From: a virus
Virus record (IMG/VR): IMGVR_UViG_3300030737_000007
Coordinates: 27,895-91,894 of that record
DNA length: 64,000 nt
Strand: one strand, 5' to 3'
The notes beneath the pieces were generated by a model. It saw nothing but the letters and a program-made list of their open reading frames with translations, was not told where the DNA came from and did no database searches. A program made the translations under genes and the position numbers. This document shows positions 5,893 to 38,443 of the stretch, piece by piece; position 1 is the stretch's first letter; every line of letters begins with the position of its first letter.

Positions 5893-6075
5893 ATGGAAGA
5901 TCCAAGGGACGAAATTTACCGCGAAATGGCTCGGGAAGAGTACGGCTCCGACGAATGCGAGATAGATGATAACGCAGTGGTCAGCTACGGCGAGGATGGG
6001 GCGTTCGTCGCGGCTTGGGTTTGGGTTCGCTACCCCGAGAAAAGCGAAACAGAGGACGAAGACGAAGCCGCCTGA
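5893..6075 (+). CDS. small acidic hypothetical protein
   Basis: GAGG RBS; ...GAFVAAWVWV...; stop codon lies inside the hammerhead core. Confidence 0.75.
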   Translation: MEDPRDEIYREMAREEYGSDECEIDDNAVVSYGEDGAFVAAWVWVRYPEKSETEDEDEAA

Positions 6076-6122
6076 TGAGCCGGTGAGATCCCGGCGAAAC
6101 GCTCGAACCTGGGCGTAGCGGT
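6067..6122 (+). ncRNA. type I hammerhead ribozyme
   Basis: Stem I GCCGC(6067-71)/GCGGT(6118-22); core CTGATGA 6072-78; stem II GCCGG/CCGGC; GAAA 6096-99; stem III CGCTC/GGGCG; GUA cleavage triplet 6115-17. Confidence 0.88.
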
Positions 6123-8743: not shown

Positions 8744-9418
8744 ATGGCGAAGCAAGCAATCCACACACCAGACCTCGCCGAGCTGCAATCGTTAGAGGGC
8801 TGGGCCCAACTAGATCCAGATGAGCGAGAGACAATCGTAACCAAGGCTGAGGACTTGGCCCGAGCACTTCACCAGGAGGGCCAATCCAAACTCAGCATCG
8901 GCTCCCACTTGGTGGTGATCCGTGGTATACTCCACCCTAAGAAGATGTGGACTGGGTTCCTCCGGAAGAGTTTCCACATGAGCGTGGCTACGGCGTTCCG
9001 GTATATCGCCGAGCATGAGACAGTTTCGAAGGCGCTGCCCGCCAACGTGATGAGCATTGCCATGAGCCGCGGGTATAAGATCAAGCCCCAGGCGATCGCG
9101 AAGAACCCACCGCCCAAGACGACGGATACGAAAGAGATTGTCCATTATCTGGACAAACTGGTCCGTATCCCAAAGTCGAAGGTGATCGTGGTCGAGGCGC
9201 TGGACACCGACCTGATGCTGAAGGAATGCCTGAACTTCTGCAAGACTCGGTTCGCGCGCGTGCCAAGTGGCCGCGCGAAGACTAACTTCACCCGGGCGCT
9301 GCTGGGTATGCTGCTCACCACTTTTGGAATGTCAGACCAGACGCTTGCTCCCGTAGCCGTCCCCGCTTTCTTTGCGGCAAAGCGGGGACGCCCGCTTGGG
9401 TCGCGTAAGGCTGCCTGA
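8744..9418 (+). CDS. DUF3102-like DNA-binding protein with C-terminal AT-hook-like motif
   Basis: IGSHL...W..FL...F.MS..TA.RY pattern; KRGRP near the C-terminus; AGGAG RBS. Confidence 0.6.
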   Translation: MAKQAIHTPDLAELQSLEGWAQLDPDERETIVTKAEDLARALHQEGQSKLSIGSHLVVIRGILHPKKMWTGFLRKSFHMSVATAFRYIAEHETVSKALPANVMSIAMSRGYKIKPQAIAKNPPPKTTDTKEIVHYLDKLVRIPKSKVIVVEALDTDLMLKECLNFCKTRFARVPSGRAKTNFTRALLGMLLTTFGMSDQTLAPVAVPAFFAAKRGRPLGSRKAA

Positions 9419-9422
9419 CTGA

Positions 9423-9450
9423 GGGGGCTGGGGTTCGCCTCAGCCCTTTC
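9423..9450 (+). terminator. intrinsic terminator
   Basis: GGGCTGGGG-TTCG-CCTCAGCCC hairpin then TTT. Confidence 0.65.
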
Positions 9451-9477
9451 TCAATTTGAGAATTGTGGAAATAAGAG

Positions 9478-9505
9478 TTGACTTTTTGCGGGGCGGTGGT
9501 ATTCT
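9478..9505 (+). promoter_or_regulatory. sigma70-type promoter
   Basis: TTGACT-16 nt-TATTCT with TGG extension; motif B just upstream. Confidence 0.55.
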
Positions 9506-9512
9506 ATGAGGC

Positions 9513-9734
9513 ATGGGAGCCTTTGATCTCTACGGACAGTACTACGAGAATGCCCGCGACGCTCACAACGCCGAAGATGCGCAGTGCGCAGCGATTGACG
9601 CTCAGGTTGCGGCGGAACGGGTGAACCAGTCAGAGTCGTATCTCTACAGTTTGTTGGAAGGCCAGCACTGGGAGATTGTACAACTGACTGAGCGTGTTGC
9701 CGCCTTAGAAGCGAAACTATCGGAGACCAAATGA
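9513..9734 (+). CDS. hypothetical protein
   Basis: ORF track; coiled-coil C-terminus. Confidence 0.65.
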   Translation: MGAFDLYGQYYENARDAHNAEDAQCAAIDAQVAAERVNQSESYLYSLLEGQHWEIVQLTERVAALEAKLSETK

Positions 9735-9922
9735 GCCTATACAGCCAAGCACGGGCCTGTGGCGTCAACCCCGACGCGGATGCGGATCCAGAGGATTATG
9801 ATCGGTACGCACATCACTATGTCTGCAACGCTTGCGCCGCAACCGAAGACTTTGCCCAGTATCGCGCCAACTATGTCTGCCCGTGGTGCGGCGAGGGAGT
9901 AATGGAGCTAGACACGCTATGA
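9731..9922 (+). CDS. Zn-ribbon hypothetical protein
   Basis: CNAC...CPWC. Confidence 0.65.
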   Translation: MSLYSQARACGVNPDADADPEDYDRYAHHYVCNACAATEDFAQYRANYVCPWCGEGVMELDTL

Positions 9923-10101
9923 CGCCCCGACAGAAAACCATGAATGAGATTTGCGACATTCTCCACGAGCAGGTCAAGGCCGACGGCATGGGTATGGACC
10001 GAGAGAGGTTCATAAAACAGCACCGACGCTTGAACCACAAGTGGTTACTGGTTGCGCTAGAGAACTTGAAGAACCCGATCAAAGATGAGGTTTCCGGATA
10101 A
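9919..10101 (+). CDS. hypothetical protein
   Basis: ATGA overlap upstream; TAATG overlap with the integrase inside motif A. Confidence 0.6.
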   Translation: MTPRQKTMNEICDILHEQVKADGMGMDRERFIKQHRRLNHKWLLVALENLKNPIKDEVSG

Positions 10102-11237
10102 TGGAAAACGTCCTCAAGCGCGGCAACCAGTACCACTACTCAGCCACAGTCGGCAACGGCAGAAGGCTCCGGGCCTCGCTCGGCACGTCATGTCCGAAGT
10201 CGGCCAAGCGCCTAGCCCACCGTATCGGTCTAGCCATAGCCTCGGGGCCGGACAGTGAGTTGTGGCCTACCTTACGCCTCACCCTGCCCACCCAGAGTTA
10301 CCGCACCATAGCCACGGGTATGAGCGTAACCGCGCCGCCCGACTTGGCAGAGTTCGAATCCCTGTTCAAAGAGAAGCTGGACCGGCGGGAGAAGTTGGGC
10401 GAGATCACGGCCTCGACTCACAGTCTGTACGAGGCCGCCGCCGACAGCTTTTTCAACTGGCTAATCGGCCAGAAGATCGGCCAGATCTCAGAGGTAACCC
10501 CCTCACTGGTAGAAAAGTACCAGGTCTGGCGCAAGGAAAGAGTGTCCGAGCGGCCCCAGTCTAAAAACGGGCGCTCCCTGCTGACGGACAACACGGTGCT
10601 GGCCGCTATCTTCGAACTCGCCCAGGAGGAAAGGCTGATCCAGAAGTCTCCGTTCAAAGGCCGATTCAGAGCGTACGGTGCGCCCAAGGGTGCTGAGCCG
10701 TTTACACCGGAGGAGATGGCAAAGCTGGAGGCTGCGACCACAGACGGCGATCGCCTCGCATTCAAGATCTTCAAGTGGACAGGTATGCGTGGGTCAGATG
10801 TTGCTGATCTTACTTGGGCGGCGCTTGACCACATCGGCAGGACACTGCGTTGGGAGACCCGGAAGCGCGGCGTTTGGGTTACCATCCCGATATCCGAAGC
10901 TCTTGCTGATCAGTTGGGTGCGCGTTGGTACAACTCAACTGTAGTAGTGGAGGACAAGGTGCTTTCTGGCATGACGCGCCCGAAGCTATACCGCATGATC
11001 AAAGAACTTGGCATCCGGGCTGGCGTGCCCAACTGTCATCCCCACAGATTTCGTGACACTTTAGCCGTGACATTACTTGAGCGAGGTGCTACAATTTACG
11101 ACGTAGCCAAAATGCTGGGCGACTCCGTTACGACCGTAGAGAAACACTATGCACCGTTTACCGGTCGATTGCAGGAACGGGTCCGCGGGATTTTAGATTC
11201 CAGCCGGGAGTTTATGGAATTCCGGACCACGGGATAG
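10101..11237 (+). CDS. int: tyrosine recombinase / integrase
   Basis: TGMRGSD (R), TRK (K), HPHRFRDT (HxxR), LGD in place of LGH, KHY (Y). Confidence 0.92.
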   Translation: MENVLKRGNQYHYSATVGNGRRLRASLGTSCPKSAKRLAHRIGLAIASGPDSELWPTLRLTLPTQSYRTIATGMSVTAPPDLAEFESLFKEKLDRREKLGEITASTHSLYEAAADSFFNWLIGQKIGQISEVTPSLVEKYQVWRKERVSERPQSKNGRSLLTDNTVLAAIFELAQEERLIQKSPFKGRFRAYGAPKGAEPFTPEEMAKLEAATTDGDRLAFKIFKWTGMRGSDVADLTWAALDHIGRTLRWETRKRGVWVTIPISEALADQLGARWYNSTVVVEDKVLSGMTRPKLYRMIKELGIRAGVPNCHPHRFRDTLAVTLLERGATIYDVAKMLGDSVTTVEKHYAPFTGRLQERVRGILDSSREFMEFRTTG

Positions 11238-11316
11238 TCGTACCTGCAATTTCTGTTGGAGCGCATCGACCGCCTCACCAGTAGCAAGCCCTGAGTAGCC
11301 CTTGGAGGAGAGAGAG

Positions 11317-11514
11317 ATGGCAAAGCAATACGTAGTTTCAGAGGAAGAGTTCATGTCTCTCATTGAGAGCCTAGAACTCCACGCCCTGCGTAAGAACAAC
11401 TTCATCCGCGACGACATGGGCAAGCCGCCAACGTTTGAAGAGATTCATCGCACGTATCACTACGTGGTTGTTCGATGGGTTCAGGCTATGGGCTTCGGCG
11501 GAGTCAGAAGGTAG
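11317..11514 (+). CDS. cassette mini-gene 1
   Basis: MAKQYVVSEEEF...; repeat-associated RBS. Confidence 0.7.
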   Translation: MAKQYVVSEEEFMSLIESLELHALRKNNFIRDDMGKPPTFEEIHRTYHYVVVRWVQAMGFGGVRR

Positions 11515-11556
11515 CAGGCTCTGAGTAGCCCCTTAGAAGAGAGGAAAGAGAGAGAG

Positions 11557-11757
11557 ATGAAAGATAAGCGACCGTTCGCGCCGAAGAGATTGTGGATTCT
11601 GATGCACAGAGTATGTGGTGGCACCCAATGGGCGGCGTCGATGGACTATGCATTTCCTTGGACCACGAAAGCAGCAGCGATGAGGAAGATCAAGTCGCTC
11701 GGAGAAAAGGGAAAGAACTACAGGGCGTTCAGATTCGATTGCTCCACTACTGAGTAG
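11557..11757 (+). CDS. cassette mini-gene 2
   Basis: Stop TAG is part of the repeat. Confidence 0.7.
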   Translation: MKDKRPFAPKRLWILMHRVCGGTQWAASMDYAFPWTTKAAAMRKIKSLGEKGKNYRAFRFDCSTTE

Positions 11758-11780
11758 CCCCAGAAGAGAGGAAGAGAGAT

Positions 11781-11987
11781 ATGGCGTTCAAGGTTTTTCA
11801 CAGGCGCAAAAGCGCGAGCCGGGCCGCTTTCACCATCCGCCAAATCATAAAGAATGTGGAGATTTGGCATCGCATGGAAGCCGGAAGATGTGTAGGAGAT
11901 TTTGTGCCAAAGACCGACTATGACAAGTTGTTGGAAACATGCCGCAGTTTACTGGAAGTCAACGAAGCTTTACGCGACGCTGAGTAG
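11781..11987 (+). CDS. cassette mini-gene 3
   Basis: Stop TAG is part of the repeat. Confidence 0.7.
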   Translation: MAFKVFHRRKSASRAAFTIRQIIKNVEIWHRMEAGRCVGDFVPKTDYDKLLETCRSLLEVNEALRDAE

Positions 11988-12017
11988 CCCTTACCCCAGC
12001 ACCAGAAGGAGAGAGAG

Positions 12018-12200
12018 ATGAAATATCCGAAGCGCAAAGTCCTGTCGATGAGATTCTATCGCGTCCGATGCAAGCTTGGTTACGGCTCAGTGATGATGCA
12101 GTTGGAGTGTGGTCACGCGCAGGGCAGGAAGCAGAGCGAGGCCAAGAATGTCGTCGCAGGAGTATCCACCGTCACATGCAAGCAATGTGACCCCCTGTAG
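12018..12200 (+). CDS. cassette mini-gene 4 (Cys/His-containing)
   Basis: LECGH...CKQC. Confidence 0.7.
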   Translation: MKYPKRKVLSMRFYRVRCKLGYGSVMMQLECGHAQGRKQSEAKNVVAGVSTVTCKQCDPL

Positions 12201-12239
12201 CAAAGAACTGATGCGCTGCTGCGAAACGAGGAGATACCG

Positions 12240-12377
12240 ATGAGTCAGGAAGAAGGGATGAAACTGGCGTTCTGCTGCCGCTGTGGAATGCCGATGCTGC
12301 GCTCCGGTGACGAACCACTACACCACGTTAGGCTTCTACACGGACTTTTGTGTTGGCTGAACTATTCAAGAGACTGA
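12240..12377 (+). CDS. cassette mini-gene 5
   Basis: Manual translation MSQEEGMKLAFCCRCGMPMLRSGDEPLHHVRLLHGLLCWLNYSRD*; stop inside the second repeat family. Confidence 0.6.
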   Translation: MSQEEGMKLAFCCRCGMPMLRSGDEPLHHVRLLHGLLCWLNYSRD

Positions 12378-12407
12378 TGCGCTGCTGCGCTGAAATGAGG
12401 AAATGAA

Positions 12408-12605
12408 ATGAGCGAAGCGAGAGAGCCAATGATTGGAACTGGCCCATGTTATGCGCCTCGGCAGTGCTGCTTTTGCGGAGCCGTCCACGAGAAGGGTGCC
12501 GTGATGGGCTATGCGGGAGAGATTCAATGCGGAGTCTGCGGCAAGGGTGGCAACGGAGAACCTGACGAGCCGGGGATGTTTTACAAGCGCGTAGGGATGG
12601 CCTAA
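12408..12605 (+). CDS. cassette mini-gene 6 (Zn-ribbon-like)
   Basis: CCFCG...CGVCG. Confidence 0.65.
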   Translation: MSEAREPMIGTGPCYAPRQCCFCGAVHEKGAVMGYAGEIQCGVCGKGGNGEPDEPGMFYKRVGMA

Positions 12606-12779
12606 ATGAGCAACCTTAGCGAAATGGATGAACCCTGCAAGTGCGGCCATCCTCGACATGTCCACGTAATTCGCATGATAAACACCAAGTGTGACTTTGG
12701 CTGCGCACACGGCTTATGGAGCGACAAGGAATGTCCATGCGTGAAGTTCGTTTCCGTCGCACCACCTGAAGCAAAGTAG
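12606..12779 (+). CDS. cassette mini-gene 7 (Cys/His-rich)
   Basis: Manual translation MSNLSEMDEPCKCGHPRHVH...ECPCVKF...*. Confidence 0.65.
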   Translation: MSNLSEMDEPCKCGHPRHVHVIRMINTKCDFGCAHGLWSDKECPCVKFVSVAPPEAK

Positions 12780-12804
12780 TCCCACCACACCATAAGGAGC
12801 CACC

Positions 12805-12999
12805 ATGACACCGAAACAGCGCAAGATTTGGAGTGATCGGATGATTCAGAAAGAAATTCGAATGCTCAACTTCTACCGAGCTCCTCTCGCGAATAATGAT
12901 CCTCCTGATGGATCATTTCTCATGGGCGCATTCTTGCAGGGATGGGATTCTGCGATGCGGGCCTCGCGGAAAAACCCCAAATCAAAGCCAACGAAGTAG
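12805..12999 (+). CDS. cassette mini-gene 8
   Basis: Flanked by CCACACCATAAGGAGC repeats. Confidence 0.65.
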   Translation: MTPKQRKIWSDRMIQKEIRMLNFYRAPLANNDPPDGSFLMGAFLQGWDSAMRASRKNPKSKPTK

Positions 13000-13019
13000 C
13001 CACACCATAAGGAGCAGAG

Positions 13020-13742
13020 ATGGACGACAGAGATTTTGCAGACATGGAAACCGAGGACTTCGAGCGCGAACAGGACGATTTACGCGCCAAGCTCCCAGCA
13101 GATGCTAGCCTCTCAGAGCCGCAGGAGATTCTTGGAGAGTGCGATTACAGACTCGAAGGGCCGCACAAGAAAACTCCCGAGTGTAAGAACTGGAAGGCAG
13201 CCCCAACAGCAGCAGGGAGCGAGGAGCCGACGTCTCAGCCACGGTGCAGGAATTGCGGCCAGTTCAAAGCCATGCACGAAGGATGGAGATGGTGCGTTGG
13301 CGATCCGTGGGAGGATCATAAGAAATTCTTCATCCCCGGCGACGAACCCGAGGCCACGCAGGACTCTCCGAATAAGCCCCTAGACACACAAGAACTGCCG
13401 CCGCTGGGAATGACAATCATCACCCGAGAAGATGTAAGGCGAGCGCTGGGAATCCGTGAGCGCCAGTTACGCGAAGCCCGGGCTCGGCTCTCCCAGCTTG
13501 AGAAAGAGAACCAGTGGATCAGCGTGGAGCAGGAGTTGCCTACCGAGCGCGAGCAGGTAATGATCTCCACCGCTATCGCAGGAATAATGCTGTCCTCATG
13601 GTTTTGCTGGTTTCCAGAGAAGGGTGACCCGCCTTTATGGCACAACGTTCTTCGGGAATTTGGAGAAGTTACCCACTGGCGTCCTCTTCCATCCCCTCCC
13701 AGGGAGGCACTAAGCTCCGGGTCCGAAAGGAATTCCAGATAA
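13020..13742 (+). CDS. mosaic protein with C-terminal DUF551 domain
   Basis: QWISVEQELP...VTHWRPLPSPP. Confidence 0.75.
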   Translation: MDDRDFADMETEDFEREQDDLRAKLPADASLSEPQEILGECDYRLEGPHKKTPECKNWKAAPTAAGSEEPTSQPRCRNCGQFKAMHEGWRWCVGDPWEDHKKFFIPGDEPEATQDSPNKPLDTQELPPLGMTIITREDVRRALGIRERQLREARARLSQLEKENQWISVEQELPTEREQVMISTAIAGIMLSSWFCWFPEKGDPPLWHNVLREFGEVTHWRPLPSPPREALSSGSERNSR

Positions 13743-13918
13743 TGGAAACCCATGACCTGATAAACGAAGTAGTCAACCAGGCGAACATGATCGATAAAGG
13801 TATGACCAAGATGCGGGCCAAATACTCTTTCTCAGGCACGCCGCCGGAAGGACTGAACGAAAAGTTCGCCGCGGACGCAAAAGAGTTTATGCAGTGGCAC
13901 AAAATTGGTATAAGATAA
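13742..13918 (+). CDS. hypothetical protein
   Basis: TAATG overlap inside motif A; METHDLINEVV... Confidence 0.6.
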   Translation: METHDLINEVVNQANMIDKGMTKMRAKYSFSGTPPEGLNEKFAADAKEFMQWHKIGIR

Positions 13919-13931
13919 GAAAGAGGACAAA

Positions 13932-14138
13932 ATGAGATTGGGCGCAGAACCGAGCATAACTGTAAACGGTGTAGTTCTATCACAGGCCGAAGCCATGACG
14001 TTGCGGGTGGCGCTAGGTTCATTCGTTATTTCCCTCCTCTCGGAGGGATTGGGTGAAGATGAAACTGGTCTCGCCATTTCACAGGGATACAAACGTTGCG
14101 CCGATAGCATTCATAAACTTATGTGGAGGAAACCATGA
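13932..14138 (+). CDS. hypothetical protein
   Basis: GAGG RBS; EP.ITVNG..LS.A.AMTLRVAL. Confidence 0.7.
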   Translation: MRLGAEPSITVNGVVLSQAEAMTLRVALGSFVISLLSEGLGEDETGLAISQGYKRCADSIHKLMWRKP

Positions 14139-14365
14139 ACCGTCAAGAATTCGACAACGCACTTTACATCAAACCCAGTGGCCGCGAAGACCGCGAGGCC
14201 CGAGAAAAGTCTAACACCCGCCGGTTCTGGTTTCTGTGCGTTCCGGGCGGTGCGCTGGCCGCGTTTATCGTGGCGCTGGTATCCGGCTCGGGCGGGGTAT
14301 TCTTCTGGGCCTGGCTGGTGTTTACCTTTCTGATTTACGGGCTTAGTATTCCGGAGGGGAAATGA
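14135..14365 (+). CDS. small two-TM membrane protein
   Basis: Two hydrophobic segments; GGAGG RBS. Confidence 0.65.
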   Translation: MNRQEFDNALYIKPSGREDREAREKSNTRRFWFLCVPGGALAAFIVALVSGSGGVFFWAWLVFTFLIYGLSIPEGK

Positions 14366-14976
14366 ATTCTCAAGTTGAGAAACCAGTGGTGATGTTCGAT
14401 AGCCCCGAAGCTGCCACGTATCGGACGGACATAAAGGGTTGGGTCTCGCGGGGCGGCTTGTTCTATGGGGACAACCCAGGATCGGAGCGTGGCGCGCGCT
14501 GGAGCGGCTGTACACACCAGACTTGCGAATGCGGGGCCGTTCACGAAAAGAGCCGCAGCATTTGCTGGGCCTGCGTTTCCAAACAGAGGGACGAGAAGTA
14601 CAACGCCCTTCCTATGGTGGAGTGGGATGAAGCCACACCTATCTGCACGTTCGACGACGACAAGTTCTTCTTTGACGAGTCCTCCCTGCTGGACTGGATG
14701 GGTGAACTCAAGTGGGAGGCGGAGCAACGGGGCGAAGGGCTACCGTGCGTTCAGCTTGTGCTCTGTACACCTCACCGGCTCGGGTATATCGACGAGGACC
14801 AGTGGGCCGACGACTTAGCTGAGGACGGAGAACTCCCCGCCGAGGTACAGGAAAAGCTGGACGAATTAAACGAGGCCATCAAGCGCGCGCCGGTGGTATC
14901 GTGGTGGGCTGGGGCGACCCGGATCGACGTGGAGAAGCTGTGGGAGCAGGTCGCGGCTGAGGAAGTTTCCGGATAA
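14362..14976 (+). CDS. conserved phage hypothetical protein
   Basis: GWVSR.G.FYG...ER.AR.SGCTH..C.CG pattern seen in many temperate phages. Confidence 0.75.
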   Translation: MNSQVEKPVVMFDSPEAATYRTDIKGWVSRGGLFYGDNPGSERGARWSGCTHQTCECGAVHEKSRSICWACVSKQRDEKYNALPMVEWDEATPICTFDDDKFFFDESSLLDWMGELKWEAEQRGEGLPCVQLVLCTPHRLGYIDEDQWADDLAEDGELPAEVQEKLDELNEAIKRAPVVSWWAGATRIDVEKLWEQVAAEEVSG

Positions 14977-17111
14977 TGGAAACGGACTTTTACCTCGACT
15001 GGGAAGTAAAATCTGTTGTGGCCCTAGATGTTCACGGGCTCGACAGGTACGCTAAGGATCCTTCGACGGCGATCCTGATGGGGGCGTACGCCGAGGGAGA
15101 TCACGCACCCAAACTCTGGCAGCCTCACCTCGAACCCAAGATGCCCGCCGAGCTGCGTGAGGCGCTTGAAGACCCGATGGTCGCTATCCACGCATGGCAC
15201 AGCGCCTTTGAAAGGGTGATTTCCAAGAATGTGCTGAAGATCGACAAGCCCATCCCTGAGTGGAGATGTTCGATGTCCGCAGCGCGTTATTTGAGCTTGC
15301 CGGGAAGCCTGGACGACGCAGGCAAGATTCTGGGTCTGCGTGAAGACCAAGCCAAGATGAAGATCGGCGACAAGTTGATTCGGAAGTTTTGTATCCCGGA
15401 AGACCTTGGCGGAGAAACTACACTTTTCGGAATGAGCGAGCCCACTTTCCGATCCTGGGCGACGGACCCCGCCGAATGGGAATTATTTTGCGATTACTGC
15501 AAGCAGGATGTAGTTGCGGAGCGCGCCATCCTCAAAAAGATCCGCAAGTTCCCGTTGCCCGACTTCGAATGGGACACGTATTATCTCAACGAAATGGTCA
15601 ATGCTACTGGGTGGCCAGTGGACATGCGTCTCGTGACCGGGGCGCGTGAGATTGTCGTGCGGGAATTAGAACGCCTCGGTACCCGACTGCACGAACTCAC
15701 AAAATTAGACAATTCTAACTCCGTGGAACAGTTACTACCCTGGTTAAGGGATCGTGGGTACAACTTCTCGTCGCTGAATAAAACCCTCGTCGCGCGCGCG
15801 CTCGAAGACACCCAACTGTCCGAGGACGCCCGAGAGGTTCTGATCCTGCGCGGCCAGACTTCCAAGTCATCGGTACGGAAGTACACCAACATCGCGGACA
15901 TGGTGAGCTTGGACGGGCGGCTGCGGCACCAGTACACTTACTACGGCGCGGCGAGAACTGGGCGGAATGCTGCGCACGGTGTTAACGTCGGAAATCTCCC
16001 AAAACCAGTCAAGTCAGTCGAAAAGCACCTGGAGCGAGCGATCGAACTGGTGCGCGCCGGAGACTACGAGGGAGTCAAGCGAGAGTTTGACAAGCCTCTG
16101 GACGTGATTACCTCGACCGTCCGTGCGTCCTTTCGAGCGGAGGACGGGAGTAAGTTTATCGTTTCGGATCTCACGTCAATCGAGAACGTAGCGATCATGT
16201 TCCTGTCTCGGTGCGTCTCGGGGCTAAAGGTGTTTGAGGAGAAGCGTGATCCCTACCTGGACTTCGCCGTCCACTTCTTCAAACAGAGTTACGCCGACCT
16301 CTACGCCGAGTACAAGGCGGGGGACAAGTCGAAGCGTACGCTGTGTAAACCAGCCTCCCTCGGATCTGGCTTTGGCTTGGGCGCGGGCGAAGAGTTCCTA
16401 GACGCAGACGGTAACAAACAGTGGAGCGGTCTCCTGAAATATGCCCGAGACATGGGAGTAATCATGACCCAGGAAGAGGCCACCAAAGCCATCGCTGTGT
16501 TCCGGAAAGTTTATCCCGAGGTGCCGCAGATCTGGAAGGACCTAGAGCGCGCCGCCGTCCGGGCCATACGAAACCCCGGATCATTGGTAGGCGTGGGCGT
16601 GCCTCAGTCGGACAAAGATCGTGAGTGGTATCTATCTAGAGGGCGCGCCGTAGACTTAGAGCCGTTCCTATCCTTCCGGTGCCACGGTAAGAAGATACTG
16701 GAATTGATCCTGCCATCTGGGCGATCGCTGCATTACATTGACCCTCGCGTCGAAGAGGAACCAGCGGTTTGGGAAGGCAGATCGTACACCCGCCAGAAAA
16801 TCATGTACTACGGCAAGCAACAGAACACGTCCGCTTGGGGTTTGGTTCCCACATTCGGCGGCAAGTTGCTGGAAAACAGTGCCCAGAGCTGGGCCCGAGA
16901 CATCCTCATGGAGGGCATGAAGAACGCTGCTGCGATGGGATTCGAAGTTGTCGGATCGACGTATGACGAGATCATCGCGCTGGTGCCTAATGATTCCCCC
17001 CTTGGGGTGGACCAGTTATGCGAGTGCATGACGCGGAAACCCTCGTGGATGCCCGATGGCATACCTCTTGGCGCGGCTGGTTTTGAGACACAAGAATACC
17101 GAAAAGATTAG
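14976..17111 (+). CDS. polA: family A DNA polymerase with 3'-5' exonuclease domain
   Basis: Exo DWE; YYGAARTGR; motif A SDLTSIE; motif B RTLCKPASLGSGFG; motif C YDEI. Confidence 0.9.
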   Translation: METDFYLDWEVKSVVALDVHGLDRYAKDPSTAILMGAYAEGDHAPKLWQPHLEPKMPAELREALEDPMVAIHAWHSAFERVISKNVLKIDKPIPEWRCSMSAARYLSLPGSLDDAGKILGLREDQAKMKIGDKLIRKFCIPEDLGGETTLFGMSEPTFRSWATDPAEWELFCDYCKQDVVAERAILKKIRKFPLPDFEWDTYYLNEMVNATGWPVDMRLVTGAREIVVRELERLGTRLHELTKLDNSNSVEQLLPWLRDRGYNFSSLNKTLVARALEDTQLSEDAREVLILRGQTSKSSVRKYTNIADMVSLDGRLRHQYTYYGAARTGRNAAHGVNVGNLPKPVKSVEKHLERAIELVRAGDYEGVKREFDKPLDVITSTVRASFRAEDGSKFIVSDLTSIENVAIMFLSRCVSGLKVFEEKRDPYLDFAVHFFKQSYADLYAEYKAGDKSKRTLCKPASLGSGFGLGAGEEFLDADGNKQWSGLLKYARDMGVIMTQEEATKAIAVFRKVYPEVPQIWKDLERAAVRAIRNPGSLVGVGVPQSDKDREWYLSRGRAVDLEPFLSFRCHGKKILELILPSGRSLHYIDPRVEEEPAVWEGRSYTRQKIMYYGKQQNTSAWGLVPTFGGKLLENSAQSWARDILMEGMKNAAAMGFEVVGSTYDEIIALVPNDSPLGVDQLCECMTRKPSWMPDGIPLGAAGFETQEYRKD

Positions 17112-17228: not shown

Positions 17229-17495
17229 ATGAAGCAAATTGTGAGCGTAGTAGAAGTAGACGGCGAGGGCCTAGAAGCCCTCCTTAACCAAGATGTCCTG
17301 CTGTTCGGACTCAACTATATCTATGCCGGGAAATTAGTCGGCGTGAACACAACTTTTGTCAAACTAGAAAACGCGAAGATCGTGTACGAGACCGGTTCGT
17401 TTACTGATAAGGGATACAAAGACGCACAGCCGCTGCCCGGCGCTTCGTGGTATGTCCAGACCTCCGCCATTGAGTCTTTCGGCCTCGGAAAGTAG
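17229..17495 (+). CDS. putative Sm/Lsm-like fold protein
   Basis: LEALLNQDVLL...YIYAGKLVGVNTTFVKLENAKIV resembles the Sm1 pattern (helix, G.L.G.D....L.d); AAGGAG RBS. Confidence 0.55.
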   Translation: MKQIVSVVEVDGEGLEALLNQDVLLFGLNYIYAGKLVGVNTTFVKLENAKIVYETGSFTDKGYKDAQPLPGASWYVQTSAIESFGLGK

Positions 17496-17501
17496 GCGGC
17501 T

Positions 17502-17729
17502 ATGGCCCGTTCAAGCAAACAAAAATACCGCTCTTTATGGTCGCGGTCGGGGTCGCGGTCGGGGTCGGGGTCGTGGTCGGGGTCGTGGTCGGGGTCGGGG
17601 TCGTGGTCGGGGTCGTGGTCGGGGTCGCGGTCGCGGTCGCGGTCGGGGTCGCGGTCGGGGTCGTGGTCGCGGTCGCGGTCGCGGTCGTGGTCGTGGTCGC
17701 GGTCGGGGTCGGGGTCGTGGTCGCTATAA
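17502..17729 (+). CDS. (R/G/W)S dipeptide-repeat protein
   Basis: MARSSKQKYRSL followed by 31 XS dipeptides; ATG 6 nt after the Sm-like stop. Confidence 0.65.
   Translation: MARSSKQKYRSLWSRSGSRSGSGSWSGSWSGSGSWSGSWSGSRSRSRSGSRSGSWSRSRSRSWSWSRSGSGSWSL
17538..17723 (+). repeat. hexamer tandem repeat (C/G/T)GGTCG x31
   Basis: 186 bp, perfect period of 6, only position 1 varies. Confidence 0.97.
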
Positions 17730-17747
17730 CTTAACTCTAACTGCCCG

Positions 17748-17769
17748 CCGGGAGCAATATCCCGGTTTT
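17748..17769 (+). terminator. intrinsic terminator
   Basis: CCGGGA-GCAATA-TCCCGG-TTTT; T-tract overlaps a motif-A copy. Confidence 0.6.
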
Positions 17770-18454
17770 CCAGATAATGGAAAGAGGTCGCACATGACGA
17801 TCGAAGAAGCCACAGAAGAACTCCTTGACTTGGTGTACGACCCGCCGATCTTCCACTCCGATCCGTACGTCCAACGAAAATCAGTATAGACTTCTATAGC
17901 GGACATCCTGGAAGGGTACGAGCCTGCTTTGCCGCCGGTTTGCCCCGAGTGTTCGCACAAGGACAGAGAGCATGACCGACTCGTAGATGAGAATACTGAT
18001 ATGGCGGGCGACATAGAGGATTTGGAACGCAAACTCGGGAGACTTCTAGAACAAAACGAGACCTTGCAAGACCGCAACATCTGTCTGAGCGCGCGATTGC
18101 GGGAGCTAGAAGGCGAATGACTTACTGGGGCCGAGTAACCGTTGCCGTGCTGTTCTTCTTTGCCGGAGTTGCCTTCCTCGGTGTGGGCAGTGTTAGTTTT
18201 TGGTGTTTTGCTGGGGCCGCAGTCGCTGTATTCTGGCCCAGAGGGAAGTATGACTGAACTTGAAGAGATGCGGGCCCGAGTGATAAAACTTGAGGCCCGG
18301 GTAGCAAGGCTCAAAAAGCGGCTGCTCAAGAAGAAGAAATACGAAGCGGGGTATTTGCAGGCTACGTCGGCTACCCCACAGTTGAGAGATTTGATTGACC
18401 AGAAAGATCGGGCCGTGCTCGAAGATTGATTCCAGATAATGGAAAAGGAGAGGT

Positions 18455-20117: not shown

Positions 20118-20164
20118 TTCCATTAGCTGGAATTTGTGGTAAAATTGAATTCTCAAATTGAGAA
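20118..20164 (+). promoter_or_regulatory. extended -10 promoter bracketed by motif A and motif B
   Basis: TGgTAAAAT 20137-20145; motif A variant 20118-20132; motif B 20150-20164. Confidence 0.6.
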
Positions 20165-20497: not shown

Positions 20498-21679
20498 ATG
20501 GAATTTACTGACCAAGAACTAGCTGCAATACGTGCCGAGCAATGTAAGGGTGCGTCCGACAACCAATTTACGCTGTTCATCAGCGAGTGCAAGAGTCGTG
20601 CGCTACGTCCGGGTAGCCATATCCTATTTCAGCTCAGGAAGGCGAAGGAATACGATCCTGTCACCGGCGCGTACATCTCCTTCATGAAACCTTTCTACAT
20701 CACCACGATCAGCGCGCTGTTGCTGATTGCTGAACGGACAGGTAAGTATGATGGGGCCTCCGCACCCGAGTACATCTACCTCGACGACGCCGGGGAGCCG
20801 ACGGTCCTCTCCGAAATCCCCCTGCCCGACAAAGAGAAGAAGTCTTTGCCCCGGGAGCCGTGGGCTGTTCGGGTCAAGGTGCGCCGTAAGGACTTCTCCG
20901 AGCCCATCTCCAGCATTGTCCGGTTCGAATCGGTCGCCGGTACTCGCCGGGTTGAAGGCGGGGGCGTAGCGCTCACCGAGATGTGGCAGAAGAGGGGGCC
21001 CGAGCAAAACGCCAAGTGCTCCCTGGCCGCGGCGATACGCATTTGTTTCCCGGAAGAGGCTGGTCAACTGTTCATTGCAGAGGAATTGAAGAACGAACCA
21101 GAAGATGCACCAACACCATCTCAAGCCCTTACCCCCGCACCCTCCGCCCCGATCGTCCCCAAGGTAGACCAAACGCCCGCAACCTCAACCGATGCCCCGC
21201 GACCCGGCGAAGAGAAGCCGATCCCAACACTAGTGGAGCTGATCCTGGATAAGCCCGCCGCCCCCGAACCCGAGAGGAAGAAACCAGGCCGCCCGAAGAA
21301 AGAGCCGGTTCCAGATAACGGAAACCCCGGTGAGCTTGGGATCACAGACGAGGACATCGCCCTCGCAGGCCCCTCGACCACCGAGACTCCCGAAGAGCGT
21401 GCGGCGGCCCTAGCAGACGCCCACGCATTTGTAGAAGAGGTATCGGTCGTAGCAACTGACCCGTTACCAACCAAAGAGCAGAAGGATGCCTTCGTAGCCC
21501 ATGTCCGAGAAATAGTAGCGGCGGGGGTTGACAACAAGCTGTTGGGAGCGTATATTTGCGGCAGAGTAAATAAGCAAAAGTCCAGTGAGCTAACCGTAGG
21601 CGAATGGAAGTCAGCGTTTGAGATTCTGAACTCCGCCAAAGCGGCTGGGACGCTCAAGGAAGTGGTGAAGCCGGTATGA
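20498..21679 (+). CDS. RecT/Bet-like single-strand annealing protein
   Basis: F.LFI..C....L.P, IAERTGKYDG, MW.K.......KC....AIR..FP. Confidence 0.8.
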   Translation: MEFTDQELAAIRAEQCKGASDNQFTLFISECKSRALRPGSHILFQLRKAKEYDPVTGAYISFMKPFYITTISALLLIAERTGKYDGASAPEYIYLDDAGEPTVLSEIPLPDKEKKSLPREPWAVRVKVRRKDFSEPISSIVRFESVAGTRRVEGGGVALTEMWQKRGPEQNAKCSLAAAIRICFPEEAGQLFIAEELKNEPEDAPTPSQALTPAPSAPIVPKVDQTPATSTDAPRPGEEKPIPTLVELILDKPAAPEPERKKPGRPKKEPVPDNGNPGELGITDEDIALAGPSTTETPEERAAALADAHAFVEEVSVVATDPLPTKEQKDAFVAHVREIVAAGVDNKLLGAYICGRVNKQKSSELTVGEWKSAFEILNSAKAAGTLKEVVKPV

Positions 21680-30996: not shown

Positions 30997-32857
30997 TGAC
31001 CTTGATGCAATTAAGGGGAACCCCGCGGTAATTCGGGTGTACAACTCAATTCTCAAATTGAGATCTTTGGGCGGGGGAAAGTATCAGGGACTTTGCCCGC
31101 TACCAGGACATAGCGAGAAGTCCCCGTCCTTTACCGTTTACCCCGACATGCGCGCGCACTGCTTCGGATGCAACCAGGATTTCAACATATTTACGCTGTT
31201 GCAGGCCGTCGAGGGTATTGATTTCAAGCAGGCTCTGGAGAAGGTGAAGAAAGAGATTGGCGGGTGGGAAGAGGCCAAGGAGACTACCGAACGGGCTTTC
31301 AAGCCGATCGCCCCGACCAAAGTGTTTAAGACAATACCGCTCAGTAACTTTCAGAAGCTAGAGGAGGCTTTGGAGTATAGTGTTCCTGCTCGGGAATGGC
31401 TACTCAAGGAGCGTGGCCTAATCTACGAGGCAGTAAAGCGACTCCACGTTGGGTTTGTCCAGTCCATAGGCAATTTGGCTGGACAAGACGGGGCGGACAT
31501 CGCCGATAAGGGTTGGATCGCCTTTCCGTGTATCGAGGGTGACAAGGTAATCTCAATCAAATACCGTTCCATTATTCGGAAAAAGCCGGGTGGATTCGCA
31601 CGCCAGCCGGGAATGGCGACCGCTCTCTGGAACTCCGAGACGATCGATGTATTCGAACCTGTCTACCTGACGGAAGGCGAGTTCGACTCCGCCGCGCTAG
31701 AGGCTGCGGGATTCCATGCGGTCAGCGTCCCCTCTGCCGGGGTGAAACTAACCCCAGAGCAGAAGGACCAACTGATGAAGGCGGCGTACGTAGTGCTGTC
31801 CGGAGACAACGACCCCACTGGCTCGGGGTACATGAAGAAGCTTTGGGGTGAGCTGAATGAGCGGTGCTACCTACTAACATGGCCGGACGGCTGCAAGGAT
31901 GCGAACCAGGCGCTGAAGGAGAACTGCAAGGGTGACATAGATAAGTTCCGCGAAATGGTAGACAGTCTCACGTCTAAAGCGAAATCAACCCCGGTCCCAG
32001 ATGTCTACGCTATTCAGGAAATCATGAAGAATAGCGAGGATACCAGCCTTGCCGACCGGGCTGATCGCCTGCGGTTCCCGTGGTCCAACGTGGATAAGAT
32101 GACCATCCTGTTACCCGGGTCCGTGCTGGGGCTCACCTCGACGAACACGTCTATGGGTAAGACCCCCTTCGCGATCCAAGGAACTTTATTTGGGGCTAGG
32201 AAATATCAGGAAGTTGTGGTAAACTGGCAGTGCGAATTAAGTCCAGCGGAAATTTCAGTGATCGTAGCGGCACAGGTGCTCCACAAGAACCGTAATTTCC
32301 TGGGCAAAGAAGACTTGAAACAAGCAGCAGAGCAACTCGACGGAGTAGCCTACTACGTCGGTAATAACCCAGTCATCACGAACATCATGGAAGTGCTTGA
32401 TATCATGGAGGCCGCAATACGTCGCTTAGGGGCCACGGTCGCAGTGCTTGATAATCTGCATTTTTATACAACAGGCATCGACGACGAGAACCGAGTCCAG
32501 ACCGCGGCGATCAAGAGGATTAAGCAGATAGCAGGGACGTATGGCTGTAAATGGATTGTGGTCGGACAGCCTCGTAAGGCCTCTGCGCAGTCCAAAGGTA
32601 AAAAGACCCACATTACCGACGCCAAAGGTTCTGGGTCATTCGGCGATACATGCGACAGCTTCATGGCGATCCACCGTGAAGTCGCGAAGCGGGACGGCGA
32701 TGAAGAGTTGAGCGATATTTACGAGGACAAGGTATTAGTAGAAATGCTGAAGACGCGATCAAAGGGTACAGGTAAGTCCAGCGGGTTCTTGACCTTTTTT
32801 GGAGAGTTCGCAGAGTTTGTTCAGTTGGATACGCATCACGAGGAGGAACCGGAATAA
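30989..32857 (+). CDS. DNA primase-helicase (CHC2 zinc finger + TOPRIM + SF4 helicase)
   Basis: CPLPGHSEKSPSF..HCFGC; TEGEFD; DND; KDAN; MGKT; LDNLH; KGSG. Confidence 0.9.
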   Translation: MSDDLDAIKGNPAVIRVYNSILKLRSLGGGKYQGLCPLPGHSEKSPSFTVYPDMRAHCFGCNQDFNIFTLLQAVEGIDFKQALEKVKKEIGGWEEAKETTERAFKPIAPTKVFKTIPLSNFQKLEEALEYSVPAREWLLKERGLIYEAVKRLHVGFVQSIGNLAGQDGADIADKGWIAFPCIEGDKVISIKYRSIIRKKPGGFARQPGMATALWNSETIDVFEPVYLTEGEFDSAALEAAGFHAVSVPSAGVKLTPEQKDQLMKAAYVVLSGDNDPTGSGYMKKLWGELNERCYLLTWPDGCKDANQALKENCKGDIDKFREMVDSLTSKAKSTPVPDVYAIQEIMKNSEDTSLADRADRLRFPWSNVDKMTILLPGSVLGLTSTNTSMGKTPFAIQGTLFGARKYQEVVVNWQCELSPAEISVIVAAQVLHKNRNFLGKEDLKQAAEQLDGVAYYVGNNPVITNIMEVLDIMEAAIRRLGATVAVLDNLHFYTTGIDDENRVQTAAIKRIKQIAGTYGCKWIVVGQPRKASAQSKGKKTHITDAKGSGSFGDTCDSFMAIHREVAKRDGDEELSDIYEDKVLVEMLKTRSKGTGKSSGFLTFFGEFAEFVQLDTHHEEEPE

Positions 32858-38278: not shown

Positions 38279-38443
38279 GTGCCGATTTTCAGCTACGAGT
38301 GCAAGTCCTGCAATTCTCAATTTGAGAAACTTGTCCGGAAAATGGACAAGCCTGTTGAGTGCCCAAAGTGCGGCCAACCCGCAGAACAAGTATGGAGTAC
38401 TCCGTCTCCTATGGTATGGGGCCGGGGTGGAAGAGGGTTCTAA
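38279..38443 (+). CDS. FmdB-like zinc-ribbon protein
   Basis: MPIFSYECKSCNSQFEKLVRKMDKPVECPKCG...; AGGAG RBS. Confidence 0.8.
   Translation: MPIFSYECKSCNSQFEKLVRKMDKPVECPKCGQPAEQVWSTPSPMVWGRGGRGF

Follow-up and report, generated by a model that had tools for sequence, protein, structure and literature searches.

How are the small genes of a phage gained, lost and exchanged one at a time without damage to their neighbours? This question is raised by a row of mini-genes separated by repeats, which lies directly downstream of a tyrosine recombinase gene in an uncultured peat phage. The stretch analysed here, called the window, is the last 64 kb (64,000 nucleotides, nt) of the 91,894-base (about 92 kb) IMG/VR virus record IMGVR_UViG_3300030737_000007, and all the public runs that contain the region are peat metagenomes. 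The array region is a variable accessory-gene stretch situated between the integrase and the replication genes of the phage. An earlier description made from the letters of the window (the sequence-only reading) had seen in it a cassette capture and shuffling locus, driven by the integrase or by RecT-mediated recombination. After comparison of the locus with other phage contigs, we consider it probable that the small genes are swapped by recombination between shared translational linkers, possibly with the aid of a RecT-type protein, in a way that is like that of the promoter/stem-loop elements (PeSL) of T4-type phages and not like that of integrons.

The linkers were recognised by their presence in other phages. 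Contigs sharing them were found by junction pattern scans, and after the removal of duplicates at least six genotypes were left besides the window phage: the L017 type, the L073 type, L022/L076, L033, L049 and L057. The L017 and L073 types were each assembled identically from several samples. What the window shares with these relatives are patches of 27-45 nt with 93-100% identity that lie on gene junctions, and BLAST detected nothing in common in the array regions apart from the linkers; the other matches are patches inside ORF9, the last open reading frame (ORF) of the row, and a tail-protein gene at 65-80% identity. Each linker spans from the upstream stop codon through to the ATG of the next gene (24-62 nt); it contains one or more stops, a spacer that is rich in C and unstructured, and a strong ribosome-binding site (RBS). 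At least six families can be distinguished, namely J01 (with the core CTGAGTAGCCC), J02 (CCACACCATAAGGAGC), J03 (ACTGATGCGCTGCTGCG), J04, JE and JD. The linkers of the window and the genes between them, with protein lengths in amino acids (aa), are as follows.

10101-11237, + strand: tyrosine recombinase (phage integrase), generic (PF00589 3.5e-15; phrog_1)
11236-11273, + strand: linker JD, a patch 92-100% identical in L057, L059 and L073, where it precedes other genes
11271-11316, + strand: linker J01 copy 1, formed by left arm L1, core CTGAGTAGCCC and GA-rich RBS arm R1; stops in all three frames
11317-11514, + strand: ORF1, 65 aa, no family matched
11510-11556, + strand: linker J01 copy 2 (core and arm R2)
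11557-11757, + strand: ORF2, 66 aa, ending on the TAG of the core
11750-11780, + strand: linker J01 copy 3 (core and arm R3); 34 nt 100% identical in L022 and L033
11781-11987, + strand: ORF3, 68 aa, ending on the TAG of the core
11980-12017, + strand: linker J01 copy 4 (core and arm R4); 93-97% identical in L017, L022 and L033 (twice)
12018-12200, + strand: ORF4 (family F04), 60 aa, Cys-rich; homologue in L033
12192-12239, + strand: linker J03 copy 1, formed by left arm, ACTGATGCGCTGCTGCG and RBS
12240-12377, + strand: ORF5, 45 aa, a single-gene cassette between exact 17-nt direct repeats; gone at the fused junction in L073
12373-12407, + strand: linker J03 copy 2; precedes family F03 in L073 and L049
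12408-12779, + strand: ORF6 (65 aa, two CxxC pairs) and ORF7 (57 aa, Cys/His-rich), with a TAAATG joint and no linker between them
12763-12804, + strand: linker J02 copy 1, formed by a left arm that includes the last codons of the upstream gene, and CCACACCATAAGGAGC
12805-12999, + strand: ORF8 (family F05), 64 aa, a cassette between exact 16-nt direct repeats
12997-13019, + strand: linker J02 copy 2
13020-13742, + strand: ORF9, 240 aa; its N-terminal part resembles F01 and its C-terminal part is DUF551 (F02; PF04448)

The same linker stands before different genes in different phages. In the window, L022 and L033 the core with arm R3 is the same in all 34 nt, and three unrelated genes follow it; the core with arm R4 (38-44 nt), found in the window, L017, L022 and twice in L033, is followed by four. 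Behind each of J03, J02, J04 and JE there are three unrelated gene families, and the 38 nt of J02 copy 1 that are 100% identical in L059 and L073 stand there behind a different gene. Genes were taken as unrelated when local alignment against shuffles gave z below 4, true homologues scoring 7.7-94. Conversely, F01 is found behind J02, J04 or no linker, and F03 behind J03 in L073 and L049 and behind non-linker sequence in the window. The metagenome search that the sequence-only reading had proposed thus gave what that reading expected, the repeats recurring in peat phage contigs with flanked genes that differ in content, number and order.

Furthermore, the arms of the linkers are found in new combinations. 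The L1 arm, which is 95% identical in L017, L022 and L033, is joined to R1 in the window, to R3 in L022 and L033 and to R4 in L017, the last being a fusion of the left arm of window junction 1 with the right arm of junction 4. The arm is read differently in each context: in L017 the reading frame ends at the TAG of the core, in L022 and L033 at the arm's own TAG, and in the window the arm is non-coding, while L1 and the core together close all three frames. The right arms R1 to R4 are versions of a single sequence that have diverged, a situation in keeping with relaxed homologous recombination. In L073 the left arm of J03 copy 1 is followed by the right arm of copy 2, which corresponds to the window arrangement minus ORF5, and the two J02 copies are fused in the same manner in L073 and L049, left arm of the first to right arm of the second, which gives the window minus ORF8. 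These fused arms are the products expected if ORF5 and ORF8 were lost or gained between direct repeats. The repeats in the window, together with the fused empty sites in the relatives, therefore identify ORF5 and ORF8 as single-gene cassettes, so that the earlier suggestion of repeat-flanked genes that come and go is supported for these two. ORF8 is also found in L057 (94% identity) between two J02 copies and behind a different upstream gene, and ORF6 and ORF7 form a two-gene unit between J03 and J02.

The repeats themselves are far beyond chance. The eight ORFs of 65, 66, 68, 60, 45, 65, 57 and 64 aa are tightly packed on the strand of the integrase and are followed by the 240-aa ORF at 13020-13742; of the nine consecutive mini-genes reported earlier, eight deserve the name and the ninth is too long for it. 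ORF1 to ORF9 all begin with ATG, with a strong Shine-Dalgarno sequence in all but ORF7 (score 2.5), and ORF4-7 and ORF9 are Cys/His-rich. No Pfam or PHROG family was matched by the mini-genes, and the coding parts of the array units are mutually unrelated (alignment against shuffles, all z at most 2). The core CTGAGTAGCCC occurs exactly at 11291, 11521, 11750 and 11980, always on the + strand and with a spacing of 230, 229 and 230 nt; 0.06 copies are expected, none of 100 shuffles reaches four, and the 92-kb record holds no further copy. The exact pairs ACTGATGCGCTGCTGCG (12207 and 12373) and CCACACCATAAGGAGC (12785 and 13000) are among the few exact repeats of at least 14 nt in the record outside a 15-bp motif and a hexamer array that are described below. 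All three families are confined to gene junctions, where the sequence-only reading had placed them. That reading had also listed nine places with a GTAG(C/T) core; every one of them was found, plus another at 11332, and the resulting 10 occurrences in 1.8 kb exceed the 1.8 expected, a number that none of 500 shuffles reaches. TAG stops close 7 of 10 genes in the array block versus 14 of 63 elsewhere on the + arm, and it is chiefly these stops and the linkers that give rise to the GTAG(C/T) excess.

The linkers are much better conserved than neutral sites, as judged by the synonymous sites of the genes that follow them. Family F04 has 88% amino acid identity between the window and L033, with a proportion of synonymous differences (pS) of 0.63 and a ratio of nonsynonymous to synonymous substitution (dN/dS) of 0.05, which indicates a real gene of considerable age under purifying selection; the linker upstream shows no substitution in 38 nt, its sole change being a 2-nt GA length difference. 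For F03, compared between L073 and L049, pS is 0.52 and dN/dS 0.05, and the linker differs by one substitution and one indel. The tail-protein genes common to the relatives are 65-80% identical, in contrast to the near-invariant linkers. Such conservation, beyond what neutral change would leave, could come from strong constraint or from repeated recent exchange, and both fit a linker pool in active use.

At the population level, contigs of four peat runs were mapped on 10800-13900. Depth increases several-fold at the linker bins, and assembly contigs terminate at linkers, for example at 11299, 11272 and 12016. The joints 11299>11988 and 12223>12391 were present in all four runs; their loose ends assign them to phages of the L017 and L073 types and not to deletion variants of the window phage, which means that these partner phages co-occur with it. 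No joints that go back within the array were seen in the assembled contigs, which cannot reveal rare circles. We saw no sign of fast or programmed turnover, and the exchange has the appearance of slow evolutionary mosaicism. The idea of a cassette capture and shuffling locus is therefore retained in its second half only: genes are probably shuffled at the repeats, while a capture system is an overstatement for an array that is identical on about 20 contigs.

We propose that a pool of linkers is common to several otherwise different phages of the same peat communities. Being the only shared stretches in the region, the linkers would serve as crossover points, and recombination at them would swap, insert or delete whole genes with the reading frames intact. 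The partners in such an exchange might be two phages in one infected cell or two direct repeats of a single genome, perhaps by way of excised circles. It would be driven by homology, with a phage RecT-type annealing protein or the host RecA as the presumed actor, whilst the linkers would act as translation stop/start junctions and the integrase would be a neighbour and not the motor. Exact pairing over 23-27 bp is sufficient for Red-beta, versus 31-34 bp for RecA (PMC3945230). Whole linkers, with 34-62 nt, are longer than the pairing minimum of Red-beta, and RecT-type annealing at them is plausible.

Several points weigh against this proposal. The evidence is a comparison of assembled contigs in which no recombination event was directly seen, and metagenome assembly can create chimeras at shared repeats, an objection that is countered by the identical assembly of the L017 and L073 types from several samples. 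Several joints share only an 11-17-nt core, which lies under the minimal pairing of both Red-beta and RecA, so that rare short-homology events or unsampled intermediates must be assumed for them. The change of context of F03 in the window took place without a linker, and other routes hence exist too. The exact integrase and ORF1-9 proteins are each found on 11-27 contigs, making the array stable across about 20 samples, and among the contigs of the four runs there was no deletion variant of the same backbone, with its own integrase and a shortened array. Finally, the core, in the form TGAGTAGCC(C)C, is kept in the contigs L023 and L028 with unrelated genes and different arms, and it may have a sequence-specific function of its own beyond what shuffling explains.

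L023 and L028 belong to a more distant lineage and have the core alone in common with the window. Three of their five core copies, in which the core forms the 3' half, can fold as GGGGU-GAAA-[GGC UAAG GCU]-GAGUA-GCCCC:

L023 1538-1577, - strand: core hairpin copy
L023 731-770, - strand: core hairpin copy
L028 201-240, - strand: core hairpin copy

The fold of the L028 copy reaches -22 kcal/mol (z -4.1). This hairpin has no Rfam match, and the copies of the core in the window do not fold; its GAA/AGUA internal loop has what we take to be a resemblance to the loop-E (bulged-G) motif. A consensus scan found no promoter- or terminator-like site at any linker, linker RNA folds no better than shuffles (z -0.6 to +2.1, J02 being significantly less folded), no recurrent local inverted repeats are present at the junctions, and Rfam gave no match to the linkers and no ribozyme in 9000-14500 at E up to 5. 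The absence of promoter, terminator, fold and Rfam match fits open translation-initiation regions. The distance between core and start codon varies from 15 to 34 nt.

Four other explanations have to be weighed against exchange at the linkers. In an integron-like system the adjacent tyrosine recombinase would cut and join at the repeats and thereby capture, excise and reorder mini-genes. The position of the integrase, immediately upstream and on the same strand, speaks for it, and so does the fact that recombinant joints fall on cores of 11-17 nt, shorter than usual in homologous exchange. However, the L017, L073 and L022/L076 types carry the linkers without an integrase in the 2.5-4.7 kb upstream, where a Dam methylase and an ATPase-like protein (L017 type), a DUF5906 primase-type protein (L073 type) or a DUF1376 protein with small ORFs (L076) are encoded instead. 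The reverse is seen in relatives of the polymerase clade, which retain the integrase and none of the linkers. In NCBIfam the integrase scores best with the XerA/integron-integrase model, where it reaches 57 bits and the cut-off is 220; the remaining NCBIfam matches are generic Xer-type and far below their cut-offs, and Pfam gives the generic PF00589 and PF13102 only. The array, moreover, does not vary among about 20 contigs. The unrelated linker sequences number at least six, none with dyad symmetry or an attC-like fold, which makes site-specific recombination by the integrase very unlikely. Thus, of the two claims made earlier, that the repeats are not attC sites is borne out, no attC-like palindrome or fold being present at the junctions, and that the integrase drives the shuffling is not supported. 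Even less probable, and in our opinion close to negligible, is that one gene unit of 230 nt was duplicated in tandem and its copies then diverged, with the junction repeats as leftovers. The regular spacing of the four cores (230/229/230 nt) would be explained in this way, but the units have no DNA or protein similarity outside the linkers (TRF, alignment), the core spacings of the relatives differ (256, 390, 216, 296, 511 and 237 nt), and the same linkers flank unrelated genes in other phages.

A more serious competitor, which we nevertheless regard as unlikely, is an explanation of the Hendrix type, in which the linkers are conserved as signals of translation or regulation while joints arise by random illegitimate recombination and selection keeps those at boundaries. 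The strong ribosome-binding sites and stops of the linkers, the change of context of F03 without a linker and the joints that share 11-17 nt only would all agree with it. Random joints, however, would not put the same 24-44 nt before three or four unrelated genes with a break exactly at the ATG in independent genomes, nor would they surround single genes with exact direct repeats for which the corresponding empty sites exist. In addition, it is rare for function by itself to preserve 38-55 nt without a substitution where synonymous sites have nearly reached saturation. Somewhat less likely still is that the 11-nt core is an RNA or DNA recognition site (for endonuclease processing, as a translational operator or as a stoperator) and shuffling a side effect. 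The core is invariant while the arms vary, it is kept in the distant L023 and L028 with some copies forming a hairpin with an internal loop, and a hammerhead-type motif stands at a junction farther upstream in the phage. Against this, there are four copies of the core in 92 kb, all within 700 nt; the window copies are unfolded and without Rfam match, at variable distances from the start codon, and other linker families behave alike without the core. The record contains no ribozyme whose arms would pair with the core: the search for hammerheads returned a single CTGATGA...GAAAC in the window (6072-6100), whose arms do not fit the core, and nowhere in the record does a complement of the core stand beside a hammerhead core.

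A bolder version of our own proposal, which we hold to be quite improbable, is that the linkers, and above all the 11-nt core, are a community-wide connector, shared by unrelated phages of one host group and specifically recognised by some nuclease, annealing protein or RNA-binding protein, which would actively target single-gene exchange to stop/start boundaries. If this were true, they would amount to a dedicated gene-exchange system and not to a by-product of homology.

The region is also variable in phages related to the window by their core genes. Four viral contigs (L005-L008) carry a polymerase 58-64% identical to that of the window, and three of them retain the integrase in synteny (48% identity in L006/L008, 43% in L007) together with a homologue of the gene at 13742-13918. 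Between integrase and this gene lie about 0.9 kb of different small genes in L006-L008 versus 2.5 kb in the window, and this difference marks the region as a variable spot in the phage clade. None of the repeats of the window was found in L006-L008, and on the contigs compared the linkers do not track the phylogeny of core genes.

Some candidates were examined and discarded in the course of these searches. ARAGORN found no tRNA in the window or its relatives that would make the L1 arm a tRNA-like attachment site. The pattern CTGAGTAGCC-N(195-225)-CTGAGTAGCC had 41 matches in viral contigs, all of them antisense of collagen-like Gly-X-Y repeat genes. Exact 16- and 17-mer matches in viral contigs were mostly due to chance, the relatives among them being L049, L057, L059, L060, L068 and L073 only, and single-copy metagenome matches (L021, L025, L026 and L029) are probably chance as well. 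Three pattern matches in genome collections (an actinomycete metagenome-assembled genome (MAG), Microlunatus and a Lachnospiraceae MAG) are at chance level and uninformative on the host, and blastn of 9400-14400 against a phage GenBank collection gave no match.

At both ends of the array there are further possible traces of joining. Past the stop of the integrase its frame (window 11238-11294) reads SYLQFLLERIDRLTSSKP and then a stop, and the DNA is 92-100% identical in L057 and L073, where the counterpart is readable as the 3' end of an ORF. This piece, which overlaps JD, is probably the remnant of another gene's 3' end that was left when the integrase or its neighbour joined here. At the other end, ORF9 is a conserved anchor gene downstream of the arrays in all related types. 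Its two parts, F01 and F02, are adjacent genes in L049 and L057 and are merged as a mosaic in ORF9. Patches of 42 nt in it (13086-13127 and 13195-13237) are 95-100% identical to the relatives and flank a variable Cys-rich segment, and peat contigs connect 13126 with 13195 through other sequence; the arrangement resembles the linker principle at work inside a coding region. In the L017-type phage two free-standing homing-endonuclease-like genes (AP2 domain; HNH) are located a few kb downstream of the linkers (L017 8347-9407, - strand).

In the wider window the + arm contains early and replication genes and the - arm large tail-type proteins. The + arm also codes for a clamp-loader-like ATPase, a UvrD-type helicase, a PD-(D/E)XK nuclease and a primase-helicase. 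The features that bear on transcription, replication and recombination are these.

9478-9505, + strand: sigma-70-like promoter TTGACT-16-TATTCT (consensus scan), behind a hairpin at about 9421-9448
11067-11095, + strand: promoter-like site GTGACA-17-TACAAT with upstream TG (10/12 matches), inside the 3' end of the integrase gene; a consensus match only
14976-17111, + arm: DNA polymerase
20498-21679, + strand: RecT/Bet-family single-strand annealing protein (PF03837 36.5 bits, above the cut-off; TIGR01913 38.9 bits, below it)

The promoter at 9478-9505 is probably the start of an operon with the integrase and the array. A terminator scan found no terminator-like site between it and about 14.2 kb, and integrase and small genes are accordingly likely to form one operon, the mini-genes appearing to be transcribed as one long message. 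The site at 11067-11095 is a possible second promoter that could drive the array independently of the integrase.

Other repeated sequences were observed in the record. The palindrome TTCTCAA(A/T)TTGAGAA (15-17 bp) has at least five copies in the window (9447-9464, 14365-14382, 20148-20163, 31048-31063 and 38313-38328) and one farther upstream in the record; one copy abuts the 9478 promoter on its upstream side, and the palindromes look like repressor operators. The 15-bp motif TCCRGATAATGGA is present in 37 copies across the record (22 on the + and 15 on the - strand), including 10092-10107, 13733-13748 and 14965-14982. It contains a TAA/ATG overlap, brackets both the integrase-plus-array block and the block preceding the polymerase, and is kept at the same junctions in L007 and L008; it may be a further shared junction sequence. 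A tandem array of about 30 GGTCGN hexamers occupies 17538-17720, in or beside the ORF at 17452-17889.

The gain and loss of small phage genes has been debated between random illegitimate joining followed by selection and exchange at conserved boundary sequences. For the latter the present locus is an unusually clean natural case, with explicit boundary sequences that agree to the base with stop and start codons and are common to co-occurring phages that otherwise have little in common. A boundary element appears to need no promoter-plus-terminator build, a bare translational junction of 24-60 nt being enough. The linkers furthermore flag the sites of accessory genes, possibly for host takeover or counter-defence, in uncultured phages, and they explain why metagenome assemblies break at these points.

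Among the known systems, the stoperators of cluster A mycobacteriophages, reportedly described by Brown et al. in 1997, are short asymmetric motifs that occur by the dozen throughout the genome. The core resembles them as a short asymmetric motif at gene ends, in one orientation to transcription and in a temperate-type phage, but it has four copies only, between 11291 and 11990. As in integrons, a tyrosine recombinase gene stands here beside small genes, mostly without promoters of their own, that all point one way and have repeats between them. The attC sites of integrons are imperfect palindromes of about 57-141 bp with GTTRRRY-type cores, one at each cassette end, whereas the peat linkers are 24-62 nt long, unstructured and not of the attC type; the integrase does not belong to the IntI type, relatives have the linkers without an integrase, and the array is stable across samples.

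A closer precedent is the linker model of modular phage evolution, which is said to go back to Susskind and Botstein in 1978; to our knowledge, such linkers were mostly not found in lambdoid phages. The peat linkers differ from that model in being explicit and repeated, and in coinciding with single small genes and not with functional modules. Relaxed homologous recombination by Rad52-like phage recombinases was described by De Paepe et al. in 2014 (PMC3945230). With both the model and this process the locus shares short common boundary sequences as crossovers and an annealing protein that would tolerate short or diverged homology.

The nearest counterpart is the PeSL of T4-type phages, an element defined by a sigma-70-like promoter and a stem-loop terminator, for which recombination between elements was proposed with excised circles as a possible vehicle (Arbiol et al. 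2010, PMC2839356; Comeau et al. 2014, PMC4122927). PeSLs and peat linkers alike are short elements repeated between genes, in a variable region of small genes without known function. Each covers the interval between the stop of one gene and the start of its successor, Shine-Dalgarno sequence included, and in both cases the indels and replacements that distinguish phages have the elements as their borders. The differences lie in their build and in their partners. The peat linkers have no sigma-70-like promoter, the only promoter-like sites being those at 9478 and 11067, and no stem-loop or terminator, and they look like pure translational junctions in one operon. Several unrelated linker families stand side by side in the peat phage, which is not of the T4 type, has an integrase and measures about 92 kb, and its partners are otherwise very different genomes and not near-identical pairs. 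The peat linkers thus work like PeSL without being members of that class, and the principle of shuffling small genes at short shared elements is one already described for T4-type phages.

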